Shown: positions 3,309 through 54,663 of the stretch, one piece after another
How positions within the stretch are numbered: the stretch's first letter is position 1
Layout of the letters: every line of letters begins with the position of its first letter
Assembly (NCBI GenBank): GCA_026984515.1
Contig: JALSRZ010000062.1
Location: forward strand, 3,643-67,642
Direction: 5' to 3'
Source: Thiohalobacter sp.
Lineage (GTDB): Bacteria; Pseudomonadota; Gammaproteobacteria; DSM-19610
DNA: 64,000 nt
Position numbers and translations under genes: made by a program
The notes under the pieces: model-generated
Databases searched by the model: none
Told to the model about the DNA's origin: nothing
The model's input: the letters and a program-made list of their open reading frames with translations, nothing else

Positions 3309-4733
3309 ATGGGCGCGAAAACACTGTATGACAAGTTATGGGAGGCACACCGGGTGCGGGAGGATGCCGACGGCACCGCACTGATCTATATCGATCGCCA
3401 CCTGGTCCACGAGGTGACTTCACCGCAGGCCTTCGAGGGGTTGCGGCTGGCCGGGCGTACGCTCTGGCGTCGGGATTCCGTGCTGGCGGTGCCGGACCAC
3501 AATGTGCCGACCACGCAGCGCAGGGACGGTGTCGCCGGGATTGCCGACCCGGTCGCGCGTATCCAGGTCGAGACCCTGGACCGCAACTGTACGGATTTCG
3601 CCATTACCGAGTTTCACATGGACGACGCCCGCCAGGGCATCGTGCACGTCATCGGTCCGGAGCAGGGCGCGACCCTGCCGGGCATGACGGTGGTCTGTGG
3701 CGATTCCCATACCTCGACCCACGGCGCATTCGGCGCCCTGGCCTTCGGTATCGGGACCTCCGAGGTCGAGCACGTGCTGGCCACCCAGTGCCTGATCCAG
3801 AAAAAGTCGAAGAACATGCAGGTGCGCGTCGAGGGTGACATCGGCACCGGTGTCACTGCCAAGGACCTGGTGCTGGCCATTATCGGCGCCATCGGCACCG
3901 CGGGTGGTACCGGTTATGCCATCGAGTTTGCCGGCAGTGCCATCGAGGCCCTGTCGCTGGAAGGCCGCATGACGGTGTGCAACATGGCGATCGAGGCCGG
4001 TGCGCGCGCCGGGATGATCGCGGTGGACCAGAAGACCATCGACTATATAAAAGGTCGACCGTTTGCGCCCGGCGGTGAGCAGTGGGATGCCGCTGTGGAG
4101 TACTGGCGTACGCTGGTCAGTGATGAAGGCGCCGAATTCGACCGTATCGTGACCCTGGATGCAGGGCTGATCCGGCCGCAGGTCACCTGGGGGACATCCC
4201 CGGAAATGGTGGTGGCGATTACCGGCGTCGTGCCGGATCCCGAAGCCGAGACCGATAGCGTAAAACAGTCCGGTATGCGCAAGGCCCTCGACTATATGCA
4301 GCTCATGCCCGGAACACCGATCACGGATATTCAGCTGGACCGTGTCTTTATCGGCTCCTGCACCAACTCGCGTATCGAAGACCTGCGCGCTGCCGCCAGT
4401 GTCGCCAGCGGGCGCAAGGTCGCGGCCAACATCAAGCAGGCCATGGTGGTACCGGGTTCCGGCCTGGTAAAACGACAGGCTGAAGCAGAGGGACTGGACC
4501 GGATTTTTATCGAGGCCGGCTTCGAGTGGCGTGAACCGGGCTGTTCCATGTGCCTGGCCATGAACGCCGACCGGCTGCAGCCGGGCGAACGCTGCGCTTC
4601 GACCTCGAACCGGAATTTCGAGGGCCGGCAGGGTGGCGGCGGACGCACCCACCTGGTGGGGCCGGCCATGGCGGCGGCCGCGGCCGTGGCCGGACACTTT
4701 ATCGATATCCGTGAGCTGGACGAGCCGGTTTGA
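3309..4733 (+). CDS. leuC: 3-isopropylmalate dehydratase large subunit
   Basis: [25 protein letters not shown] and CSMCLAMN motifs; start placed at ATG 3309. Confidence 0.98.
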
Positions 4734-17675: not shown

Positions 17676-19187
17676 GTGTGTGGCATTGTCGGTATTGTTT
17701 CTCACGGCGCGGTCAACCAGTCGATCTATGATGCCCTGACGGTGTTGCAGCACCGTGGGCAGGACGCGGCCGGTATCATGACCTGCGAGGGCAGCAAACT
17801 CTGGTTGCGCAAGGATAACGGCCTGGTGCGCGATGTGTTTCACACGCGCCATATGCTGACCCTGCGCGGCAATATGGGGATCGGGCACGTGCGTTACCCG
17901 ACCGCGGGTTGCGAGAGTTCCGCCGAGGCCCAGCCGTTCTATGTCAACTCCCCGTACGGTATCACCCTGGCGCATAACGGCAACCTGACCAACGCCGAGG
18001 AACTGAAACAGAACCTGTTCCGAGAGGACCTGCGGCATCTCAACACCGATTCCGATTCCGAAGTGCTGCTGAACGTGTTTGCACACGAACTGCAGCGCTG
18101 CGGCAAGCTGCGCATCAATGAGGACGACGTGTTCGCCGCGGTGTCTGCCGTGCACAAGCGCTGCAGCGGCGCCTACGCGGCGGTGGCCATGATTACCGGC
18201 TTCGGTGTAGTGGCGTTCCGCGATCCCTGGGGTATCCGGCCGCTGGTATACGGCCGCCGCGAGACCGGGCAGGGTGTTGAGTTCATGGTGGCATCGGAGA
18301 GTGTCGCCCTGAACCCGCTGGGTTTCGAGCTGGTCGACGATGTGCGTCCCGGCGAAGCGGTGTTCCTGGGCAAGAACGGCAGCATGGCCAAGCGCCAGTG
18401 TGCCGATCAGCCCGCGTACGCGCCCTGTATATTCGAACACGTGTACCTGGCGCGGCCCGATTCGATCATCGACAACGTCTCCGTATACAAGGCGCGCCTG
18501 CGCATGGGTGAAGCGCTGGCGGAAAAGATCCTGCGCGAGCGCCCGCAGCACGATATCGACGTGGTCATCCCGATCCCGGATACCAGCCGTACCGCGGCCC
18601 TGCAGCTGGCCAACAACCTGGGCGTCAAGTACCGGGAAGGTTTTATCAAGAACCGCTATATCGGCCGGACCTTTATCATGCCGGGACAGCAGGAGCGCAA
18701 GAAATCCGTGCGCCAGAAGCTGAATGCCATCGACCTGGAGTTCCGCGGCAAGAACGTCATGCTGGTGGACGACTCCATTGTACGCGGCACCACCTCGCAG
18801 CAGATTATCCAGATGGCACGCGATGCCGGTGCGAAGAATGTCTATTTCGCCTCGGCGGCCCCGCCGGTTCGTTTTCCCAATGTCTACGGTATCGACATGC
18901 CCACCCGCGAAGAACTGATCGCGCACGGCAGGGATGTGGCGCAGATCGCCGCCGCCATCGGCGCCGACTGGCTGGTGTTTCAGGATATCGAGGACCTGGT
19001 CGACGCAGTGCGCAAGGGCAACCCGGAGATCGGTGCGTTCGATTGCTCGGTGTTTACCGGCGAGTACGTGACCGGCGGCGTGACCGTCGATTACCTCTCG
19101 CACCTGGAGCAGTTGCGCAGTGACTCGGCCAAGAAACAACGCCGGCTGGCTGACGACGCCGTGATCGAGATGCACAATAACGCTTGA
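17676..19187 (+). CDS. purF: Amidophosphoribosyltransferase
   Basis: [23 protein letters not shown] and [10 protein letters not shown]. Confidence 0.98.
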
Positions 19188-19213
19188 CCGGCCTGCCTGG
19201 AATTCTCTACTCT
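19184..19213 (+). promoter_or_regulatory. Candidate sigma70 promoter for the metZ leader
   Basis: TTGACC (19184-19189)-N18-TACTCT (19208-19213). Confidence 0.45.
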
Positions 19214-19395
19214 AGCCCGCATTTCTCACCGGGTTCCGTAGCGAGGCGGTGGCAGGTCGTGTGATAAGCGGCGTTCGCGACCGAGGGCCGCGCAGGCATA
19301 GTCGACACGATGTCGAGCAGCCCGACCGAGTGAACACCGCTTATCACACGGCATGACGCCGCCGCAGCAGGAAGTCGGTGAGAAATGCGGGCTAG
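19212..19395. mobile_element. MITE-like element, 176 bp, 16-bp terminal inverted repeats flanked by CTAG
   Basis: CTAG|CCCGCATTTCTCACCG...CGGTGAGAAATGCGGG|CTAG; internal 14-bp inverted repeat 19258-19271/19337-19350; no ORF of note; related end at 54482. Confidence 0.8.
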
Positions 19396-19397
19396 TG

Positions 19398-19452
19398 TTG
19401 CGCCGATTTGAGATTCAGCTTGCGGGCGCTTGATAAATTCGGCTAAAGCGGC
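19398..19452 (+). ncRNA. SAM-II riboswitch aptamer
   Basis: GCGCC-GATTT...TTGC-GGGCGC..ATAAAT..GCTAAAG matches SAM-II conserved blocks and spacing; directly upstream of metZ. Confidence 0.88.
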
Positions 19453-19456
19453 GGCG

Positions 19457-19492
19457 CCTGCTTTCGTTTCCAGTCGAAGGCGGGTTTTTTTT
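19457..19492 (+). terminator. Intrinsic terminator in the metZ leader (riboswitch expression platform)
   Basis: CCTGCTTTCG/CGAAGGCGGG stem with G-U pairs followed by T8. Confidence 0.8.
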
Positions 19493-19515: not shown

Positions 19516-20697
19516 ATGCCCGACACAGAAGATACAGTACCCGGTTTTGCCACACTCGCGGTTCGTGCCGGGCAGCAGCGTACCCTGGAATCAGAGCACG
19601 CGGAGCCGATTTTTCCGACCTCCAGTTATGTTTTCGAAAGCGCGGCGGCCGCGGCCGCGCGTTTTTCCGGGGAACAGCCGGGGAATATCTATTCACGCTT
19701 TACCAACCCCACCGTGCGCACCTTCGAACAGCGGCTTGCAGCGCTGGAAGGTGGTGAACGTTGCGTGGCGACGGCGTCAGGTATGGCGGCTATTTATGCA
19801 ACCTGTGCGGGGCTGCTGCAGTCCGGTGATCACCTGGTATCGTCGCGCAGTATCTTTGGCAGCACCACGCTGTTGTTCAATAATTACCTGCAGAAATTCG
19901 GTATCAGCACGACCTTTGTGGCGCAGGATGACGTGTCAGCCTGGGAGGCCGCGATACGTCCGGAGACGCGCCTGCTGTTTCTCGAGACACCTTCCAATCC
20001 GTTGACGGAAGTCGCTGATATCCATGCGCTGTCCGAGCTGGCGCACGCCAGCGATTGTCTGCTGGTGGTGGATAACTGCTTCTGCACCCCGGCGCTGCAG
20101 CGCCCGCTGGCGCTCGGTGCGGATATCGTGATTCATTCCGCGACCAAGTACCTGGACGGCCAGGGTCGTTGTGTCGGTGGTGCGGTGGTGGGGCGTGAAG
20201 ACGTCGTTGGCGAGGGGGTGTACGGTTTTCTGCGCACCTGCGGGCCGACCATGAGCCCGTTCAATGCCTGGGTGTTCCTCAAGGGACTGGAGACCCTGGC
20301 CATCCGCATGCAAGCGCATTGCGCTTCGGCGCAGCGACTGGCGGACTGGTTGCAGGCGCAGCCGGCTGTCGAACGCGTCTACTATCCCGGGCTCGCCTCC
20401 CACCCCCAGCACGAACTGGCGGCACGGCAGCAATCTGCATTCGGCGGGATCGTATCCTTCGACCTGAAAGGTGGACAGCAAGCGGCCTGGGAACTGATCG
20501 ATGCCACCCGTGTCTGTTCCATTACCGCCAACCTGGGTGATACCAAGACCACCATCACGCACCCGGCGACCACCACGCACGGTCGCCTGACGCAGGAACA
20601 GCGCGCACAGGCCGGTATCGCTGACGGGCTGGTGCGGGTGGCGGTCGGGCTGGAATCGATTGATGACCTGTGTGCGGATCTGGCGCGCGGACTTTGA
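19516..20697 (+). CDS. metZ: O-succinylhomoserine sulfhydrylase
   Basis: YSRFTNPT and HSATKYLDGQGR PLP motif; follows purF as in pseudomonads. Confidence 0.95.
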   Translation: MPDTEDTVPGFATLAVRAGQQRTLESEHAEPIFPTSSYVFESAAAAAARFSGEQPGNIYSRFTNPTVRTFEQRLAALEGGERCVATASGMAAIYATCAGLLQSGDHLVSSRSIFGSTTLLFNNYLQKFGISTTFVAQDDVSAWEAAIRPETRLLFLETPSNPLTEVADIHALSELAHASDCLLVVDNCFCTPALQRPLALGADIVIHSATKYLDGQGRCVGGAVVGREDVVGEGVYGFLRTCGPTMSPFNAWVFLKGLETLAIRMQAHCASAQRLADWLQAQPAVERVYYPGLASHPQHELAARQQSAFGGIVSFDLKGGQQAAWELIDATRVCSITANLGDTKTTITHPATTTHGRLTQEQRAQAGIADGLVRVAVGLESIDDLCADLARGL

Positions 20698-54448: not shown

Positions 54449-54663
54449 GTCATTGTGAGGAACGCAGTGACGCGGCAGTCTCTAGCCCGCATTTCTCACC
54501 GGGTTCCTGCTGCGGCGGCGTCATGCCGCGCTGCGCGACCGTAGCGTAGGAAGTACTTGTGAACCGCCGCAGGCGGTGCTGGAGTGCTCGCAACGACAGC
54601 GCATCAAAACGTCGCCGGGATAGCGTGGCCACGCGGCATTTCCGGCGCTGACTACGCTACGGT
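54449..54663. repeat. Composite palindromic intergenic repeat including a one-ended copy of the 19212 MITE
   Basis: CTAGCCCGCATTTCTCACCG..TTCCTGCTGCGGCGGCGTCATGCCG (54482-54528) matches the right end of the 19212 element in reverse complement; ACCGTAGCGTAG/CTACGCTACGGT inverted repeat; GTCATT..GAACGCAGTGA fragment on the left. Confidence 0.7.

Follow-up and report, generated by a model that had tools for sequence, protein, structure and literature searches.

A miniature transposable element with IS1380-family ends between the predicted metZ promoter and a SAM-II-like riboswitch in Thiohalobacter sp.

The interval between purF and metZ

The stretch of DNA analysed here, hereafter the window, comprises 64,000 nucleotides of a Thiohalobacter sp. 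genome (G000; GenBank assembly GCA_026984515.1, 3.37 Mb in 189 contigs) and corresponds to positions 3643-67642 of contig 62 (C62; JALSRZ010000062.1). It contains the genes cvpA, purF and metZ in this order, all three identified with curated models, and our subject is a transposable element of the miniature inverted-repeat type (MITE) that lies between the last two, immediately ahead of a putative S-adenosylmethionine (SAM) riboswitch of the SAM-II type. The purF gene, coding for amidophosphoribosyltransferase, occupies positions 17676-19187 of the forward strand (TIGR01134, 536.6 bits for a cut-off of 350), and metZ, coding for O-succinylhomoserine sulfhydrylase, is found intact on the same strand at 19516-20697 (NF006003, 705.2 bits for a cut-off of 522). 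Its product is the sole strong PF01053 match obtained by a profile search of this genome, which is 99.99% complete.

The MITE extends over 176 bp (19216-19391, forward strand), a length within the ~50-500 bp usual for bacterial MITEs, in the orientation of its family consensus and carries no transposase gene; the only open reading frame (ORF) crossing it is a mechanical frame of 98 amino acids on the minus strand, which also covers the aptamer of the riboswitch. Its limits are set by two terminal inverted repeats (TIRs) of 16 bp, the left one (19216-19231) beginning with CCCG and the right one (19376-19391) being its perfect complement, and by the tetranucleotide CTAG, present in matching copies on the left (19212-19215) and on the right (19392-19395). 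All these features are located exactly where the initial annotation, made from the letters of the window, had placed them. Four bases, TGTT, separate the right CTAG, which ends at 19395, from the GCGCC with which the aptamer starts at 19400.

The SAM-II-like aptamer (19400-19452, forward strand) would be organised around a P1 helix (19400-19404 with 19425-19429) and a GCUU loop (19418-19421) that faces AAGC (19446-19449), a pairing read from the sequence. In a search of 501 nt, the Rfam model RF00521 (SAM-II, also named SAM_alpha) matches positions 19390-19467 over its full length (model positions 1-79) with 30.3 bits and E = 5e-5, and the GAUUU, GCUUGC and GCUAAAG blocks are present. The earlier identification of a SAM-II riboswitch needs a correction here, since the score is below the gathering score of the family, 36, and the Rfam search at that level gave no match. 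The aptamers of the genus relatives score 29.8-33.7 bits, again all below 36, and a second SAM-II-like aptamer of this genome, upstream of metK (contig C135, ~4546-4618, minus strand; L072:2047-2119), reaches 34.5 bits. The position of these aptamers before methionine genes, here metZ and metK, is like that of SAM-II. Unlike it are the values of 29.8-34.5 bits, sub-threshold in the genome and in all the relatives scored, the host, whose nearest named public relatives are gammaproteobacterial metagenome-assembled genomes (MAGs) and not alphaproteobacteria, and the coupling to an intrinsic terminator described below. No change in the aptamer core is seen across 17 relatives within the genus, nor across the 19 genus sequences compared and, as no pair varies, covariation gives no information on P1 or on the pseudoknot. 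A clear S-adenosylhomocysteine (SAH) riboswitch (63.1 bits, L072:665-744) is found 3' of the metK aptamer, ahead of the next gene.

Downstream of the metZ aptamer, an intrinsic terminator (19456-19492, forward strand), formed by an 11-pair stem (19456-19485) and eight T and kept in the relatives, would constitute the expression platform; the metZ ribosome-binding site sits 3' of it, before the ATG at 19516. Two mutually alternative partners are predicted for the segment AAAGCGG (19445-19451), namely the P1 loop, in a pseudoknot, and CCUGCUUU (19457-19464), in an anti-terminator, and by virtue of this alternative SAM binding would favour the terminator. We accept the aptamer as a SAM-II-like switch, coupled here to an intrinsic terminator, with a score below that of formal membership.

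On the other side of the MITE, two boxes resembling those of a promoter are predicted from their conservation on the forward strand: a -35-like TTGACC (19184-19189), which overlaps the TGA stop of purF (19185-19187), and, after a spacer of 18 nt, a -10-like TACTCT (19208-19213; genus pattern TAnnCT), which shares its final CT with the start of the left CTAG. In the TTGAC, the first T ends the last purF codon, GCT, TGA is the stop codon, and the C that follows completes the motif. The 18 aptamer-bearing sequences of the genus all show TTGAC, 17-18 nt, then TAnnCT, and P1 starts 6-10 nt after the latter. Over the window and the loci L032-L054, moreover, the last purF codon is GCT in all 18 of these sequences; of the six devoid of aptamer, which read CTGAC, five have GCC and one has GTC. 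The relatives are not independent, and we regard this co-variation as good comparative evidence, suggestive but short of a proof or of a formal test. We infer that the conserved boxes form a metZ promoter overlapping the purF stop. Since they are conserved across the genus, directly abutting the aptamer, the element would fall precisely at the joint of promoter and riboswitch, in agreement with what had been proposed at the outset.

Two relatives, L037 and L048, have no leader at all, their metZ ATG overlapping the stop of purF, which indicates that the switch was lost, or never gained, within the genus. This overlap makes a coupling of purF and metZ possible in the genus and brings in a different view of the locus, according to which no promoter exists at the purF stop, metZ is read only through from purF and the MITE lies in an intercistronic spacer. 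The two relatives in question are aptamer-less, none of the relatives has a terminator in the ~35 nt that separate purF from the aptamer, and the boxes fail a strict consensus scan, all of which would suit such a view. It leaves aside, however, the spacing of TTGAC and TAnnCT, fixed at 17-18 nt across the genus, and the T that ends purF's last sense codon, a synonymous base which tracks the aptamer (18 of 18 with it, none of six without it, among sequences that are kin). Read-through from purF and initiation at a promoter can moreover coexist, and we give transcription by read-through alone a small chance. Neither an outward promoter in the MITE nor a hybrid promoter at its right end passed the consensus scan. 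TAGTGT (19393-19398), picked by eye as a possible -10 box, was rejected, as no -35 box accompanies it and its start would fall within P1.

A mobile family and its parent insertion sequence

A BLASTN search of the whole 3.37-Mb assembly returned 51 full-length copies of the MITE with identities of 93-100%, the TIRs being retained in the other copies. Further copies are apparent from 48 of the 378 contig ends, which break within the MITE, and from 22 more partial or diverged matches, the total being roughly 75 copies or ~0.5% of the assembly. The mean pairwise identity among copies, 96.7%, argues for a recent burst. Matched 4-bp flanks border 31 of the 47 copies whose flanks are readable (CTAG 24, TTAG 4, TTAA 1, CTAT 1 and CTGG 1), the flanks of another 11 differ by one base, and no base is conserved outside these 4 bp. 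As the flanks vary from site to site and yet match within a copy, including those that are not CTAG, the 4 bp are the target of the element, truly duplicated, and not a part of its own sequence. The identity as a mobile element and the CTAG duplication put forward in the initial annotation are both upheld by these counts.

The target is very rare in the genome: CTAG occurs at 814 sites, or 7% of expectation (TTAG and CTAA at 12%), and 66 of these sites border full MITE copies, the family taking a notable share of them. With crude ORF-based gene calls, the copies lie mostly at gene 3' ends, 18 of them between convergent genes, 17 between tandem genes and one between divergent genes, and many copies hold the TAG stop of the neighbouring gene within the target duplication. 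In the tandem gaps, 11 copies have the orientation of transcription and 6 the opposite one, a difference that is not significant.

The origin of the element is revealed by its ends. The 16 bp of the left TIR head, without any change, two non-MITE left ends of an insertion sequence (IS) located at the edges of contigs C102 and C87, where they are followed by a ribosome-binding site and by 31 codons of an ORF; matching right ends are found at the edges of contigs C109, C157 and C145. The transposase interior was not recovered in this genome: the PF01609 search gave no match, the IS-end fragments matched one another only, and the interior is unassembled. When the 189 nt of the left end were searched for in the genus, however, a full copy of the IS (85% identity) was identified in the relative G041. 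This copy measures ~1.68 kb and contains a single ORF of 488 amino acids, which matches the IS1380-family transposase model NF033539 with 406.9 bits (cut-off 180) and PF13701 with 520.5 bits; its left end equals the MITE TIR at 15 of 16 bases, its right end being more diverged. The first 31 residues of the ORF in the host genome align with the N-terminus of the G041 transposase. A transposase with matching ends, which the earlier proposal of a mobile element called for, has thus been found, and the family is assigned from the G041 copy because the interior of the resident IS is unassembled. To judge from its termini, the MITE is a non-autonomous element using the ends of an IS1380-family IS.

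In the IS1380 family, the ends start with CC and the target duplications are of 4-5 bp. The MITE, with ends beginning with CC and a 4-bp duplication, resembles the members of this family (IS1380, IS1247, ISPme1 and ISEcp1), as does the G041 element by its size and its single transposase ORF; IS1247, for comparison, is 1672 bp long with inverted repeats of 16/13 and direct repeats of 5 (PMC3281130). It is unlike them in its 176 bp and its lack of a transposase, so that it has to be mobilised in trans. Its family in this genome is further marked by a strong preference for YTAG and by the sequence of the internal hairpin. Our search of the literature on IS1380 elements met no description of an IS1380-derived MITE among the papers listed, which is no proof of absence, and the present work documents one such family with a strict YTAG target.

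The RNA of the MITE folds into a single long hairpin, as had been anticipated, with -116.7 kcal/mol against a mean of -67.3 for shuffled sequences (z = -11.5; none of 200 as stable). Inside the TIRs, the arms of an inner inverted repeat (19245-19276 and 19332-19363) extend over 32 nt and are 84% complementary. Four substitutions set the metZ copy apart from the consensus of the family, and three of them (element positions 129, 131 and 133; window 19336-19348) turn A.G or U.G into Watson-Crick pairs, so that the inner repeat announced in the initial annotation is indeed present, but its near-perfection is partly peculiar to this copy, in which the uninterrupted inner stem reaches 16 bp. The inner-stem changes are such as would result from the template-switch correction of a quasipalindrome. 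Among the family copies, the mean folding energies are -111.5 kcal/mol for the plus strand and -92.2 for the minus strand, and the consensus hairpin holds 7 G.U against 3 A.C mismatches; all copies stem from one master and these counts are only 7 and 3, for which reason we draw no conclusion as to a selection of the hairpin at the RNA level.

The insertion site was searched for in the purF-metZ region of 40 relatives. In the closest one, G015, whose flanking sequences are 92-96% identical, the two flanks abut directly, and the window from which the MITE has been excised, its flanks joined by one CTAG, aligns pairwise with G015 without a gap at the joint. The element is absent from this site in all the genus relatives examined, none of which shows any other insertion there, and both flanks are syntenic in all of them. 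The empty state expected by the initial annotation does therefore exist, but not in the form of a single CTAG: these relatives, all of other species, read CTTG (G015), or CTTG, CTGT, CTCG or CTTT, and none CTAG. It follows that the CTAG probably arose in this lineage by the change of a single base, prior to the arrival of the MITE. The occupied state was met once more, in a Logan contig (run SRR7968113) that encodes an identical MetZ, starts within the right end of the MITE and runs into the aptamer; an exact search for purF returned no record.

Could the repeat be something other than a transposon, namely the gene of a structured RNA, a repeat of the REP-like kind or a repeated terminator of purF, or else a mere artefact of assembly? 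The very stable fold, the many copies located directly at gene 3' ends and the many contigs broken within the repeat might suggest it. Nevertheless, flanks that are variable and yet matched, ends identical to those of an IS1380-family IS and a precise empty site in the relatives are those of a transposon. Moreover, the hairpin is not followed by the U-tract of a terminator, and the Rfam families gave no match to the MITE above chance (best E = 2.2). As to an artefact, it is argued against by the same right junction in the independent Logan contig and by the synteny of the flanks in all relatives. We consider any of these alternatives extremely improbable.

Consequences of the insertion for the metZ leader

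We think it likely that the MITE, having landed between the boxes and the aptamer, is a recent and tolerated passenger that leaves the SAM control of metZ largely in place. In the corresponding model, the transposase of the parent IS would cut YTAG sites, mostly CTAG, and duplicate 4 bp. The substitution of one base where the metZ -10 box ends on its 3' side would have generated such a CTAG in this lineage, and one copy of the MITE would have inserted there. The -35 and -10 boxes are intact on the left of the element, and the aptamer, the terminator and metZ on its right. Transcription would start near 19219-19221, inside the left TIR and ~7 nt beyond the -10 box. The leader would thereby gain a co-transcribed hairpin of ~170 nt ahead of the aptamer, and the read-through transcripts from purF would carry the entire element.

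RNA folding indicates that the MITE hairpin is unchanged when the aptamer and the terminator are appended, with 0.0 expected cross-pairs. Having no U-tract, the hairpin should not terminate transcription, and since it is also self-contained and the switch has a terminator of its own, through which it acts further downstream, SAM control should be largely kept. Furthermore, metZ is intact and encodes the sole strong PF01053 enzyme of the cell, so that its expression must persist. From the whole we infer that the functional effect of the insertion is small.

Several observations weigh against this interpretation. The first concerns the promoter: a strict sigma-70 consensus scan (at least four of six bases per hexamer) found 0 sites, TACTCT matching the consensus at three of six, and the bases that lead from the -10 box to the start, formerly AT-rich, have been replaced by the GC-rich sequence of the TIR, which could weaken or re-tune the promoter. 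Second, when the left TIR is partly untranscribed, CGGGC (19388-19392), at the end of the element, may pair with the 5' strand of P1 with a per-nucleotide probability of up to 0.61, in a model that includes neither the pseudoknot nor the terminator. Third, the strong depletion of the MITE family in divergent gaps fits equally well a target bias to TAG stops and a cost of insertions on the promoter side. Finally, exact-pattern scans of metagenome contigs with the left junction and with the aptamer core did not turn up, for this species, any empty allele bearing one CTAG.

Some of these points enter into the idea, contained in the initial annotation, that the mobile element has functionally rewired the leader, that is, that it materially alters metZ expression or the SAM response. 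It could do so through the GC-rich initial region, through a cleavage by ribonuclease III (RNase III) that would leave a processed 5' end, through the stabilisation of the mRNA by a 5' hairpin or through a competition of the right-TIR tail with P1. The long duplex and the 16-bp uninterrupted stem of the metZ copy would lend themselves to such effects, as would the pairing of CGGGC with GCGCCG (19400-19405), predicted if the left TIR is incompletely transcribed, and the rarity of the family in divergent promoter regions is in keeping with them. There is also a precedent in the Correia elements of Neisseria, co-transcribed MITEs whose long hairpin is a substrate of RNase III and whose transcripts are cut by this enzyme at the TIRs (PMC10969869). 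The metZ element resembles them as a short, TIR-bounded, multi-copy repeat with a long hairpin, often present in transcribed leaders; it is unlike them in its parent family, its target and its sequence, and the effects on Correia transcripts are shown by experiment, those of the metZ MITE being predicted.

On the other hand, the hairpin is self-contained in every fold that includes the terminator, and the latter, which carries the output of the switch, lies downstream and is untouched. The intact metZ encodes the only enzyme of its family in the cell, so that its expression cannot be badly impaired. In the trp leader of Streptococcus pneumoniae, a BOX repeat lies between two T-box riboswitches and is co-transcribed with them, and the regulation has apparently been kept (PMC3049150). 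This leader is comparable to that of metZ in that an interspersed repeat has settled inside a riboswitch-controlled leader. It differs from it in that BOX is modular and not a TIR-bounded MITE with target duplications and a known parent IS, in that it stands between two switches and not between a promoter and a switch, and in the riboswitch class. We therefore hold a material alteration of metZ expression or of its SAM response to be unlikely, though worth keeping in mind. A more specific version, which we rate lower still, is that the MITE alters the switch itself, either because the freed CGGGC lowers its SAM sensitivity through P1 or because a cut by RNase III separates the fates of the purF and metZ mRNAs; if true, a transposon would have re-tuned the feedback control of the only homocysteine-forming enzyme of the cell. 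On balance, the insertion is more likely to be tolerated than to have functionally rewired the leader.

The tolerated insertion described here overturns nothing, as MITEs in leaders and repeats in riboswitch leaders are already known, and the event is of an ordinary kind. It nonetheless offers a clean natural case of a mobile element situated within a few bases of the predicted transcription start and directly before a riboswitch. With occupied and empty states in sister species, the locus provides a convenient test of the effect of an added 5' hairpin on a terminator-coupled switch of the SAM-II type that folds co-transcriptionally.

Related elements in this genome and in other taxa

Several other sequences of the genome share the terminal repeats of the MITE. 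In the window itself, a solo end of the family, 43 nt long, is found at 54486-54528 with a CTAG before it and no remainder of the element. Short elements of 47, 75, 106 and 131 bp with the same terminal repeats occur at C93:7021-7067, C130:21034-21080, C15:20095-20169, C98:2508-2613 and C80:13841-13971, and a diverged 176-bp element (C49:13536-13711), also with these repeats, has an identity of 72%. These shorter and diverged elements are deletion derivatives or sister MITE families. A common left flank, AAAACATATCAG, is observed at C36:20817, C48:4193, C13:42, C11:59, C80:13971 and C163:1561, and its presence beside several copies implies that the MITE is nested in, or fused to, another repeat at these places.

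Outside this genome, a search of 33 other genomes of the genus detected the MITE family in four, with 1-4 matches each and 74-91% identity, a distribution which is that of a family that has apparently burst in this lineage while related species hold few copies. A MAG labelled Thiohalobacter sp. contains a copy that is 97% identical and bordered by CTAG, and a gammaproteobacterial MAG from a hydrothermal vent contains a copy of 93% identity. The first 31 bases of the element are also present in a MAG labelled Deltaproteobacteria (L084, JAKALO010000025.1), with 78% identity over 126 nt, and they head a different short element, which has nothing but these bases in common with the MITE, with at least 10 copies and YTAG-like flanks, in the proteobacterial MAG JAHJTB01 (L073-L086). 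The sharing of these 31 bases across taxa points to a possible spread of the IS lineage between them, or to binning errors.

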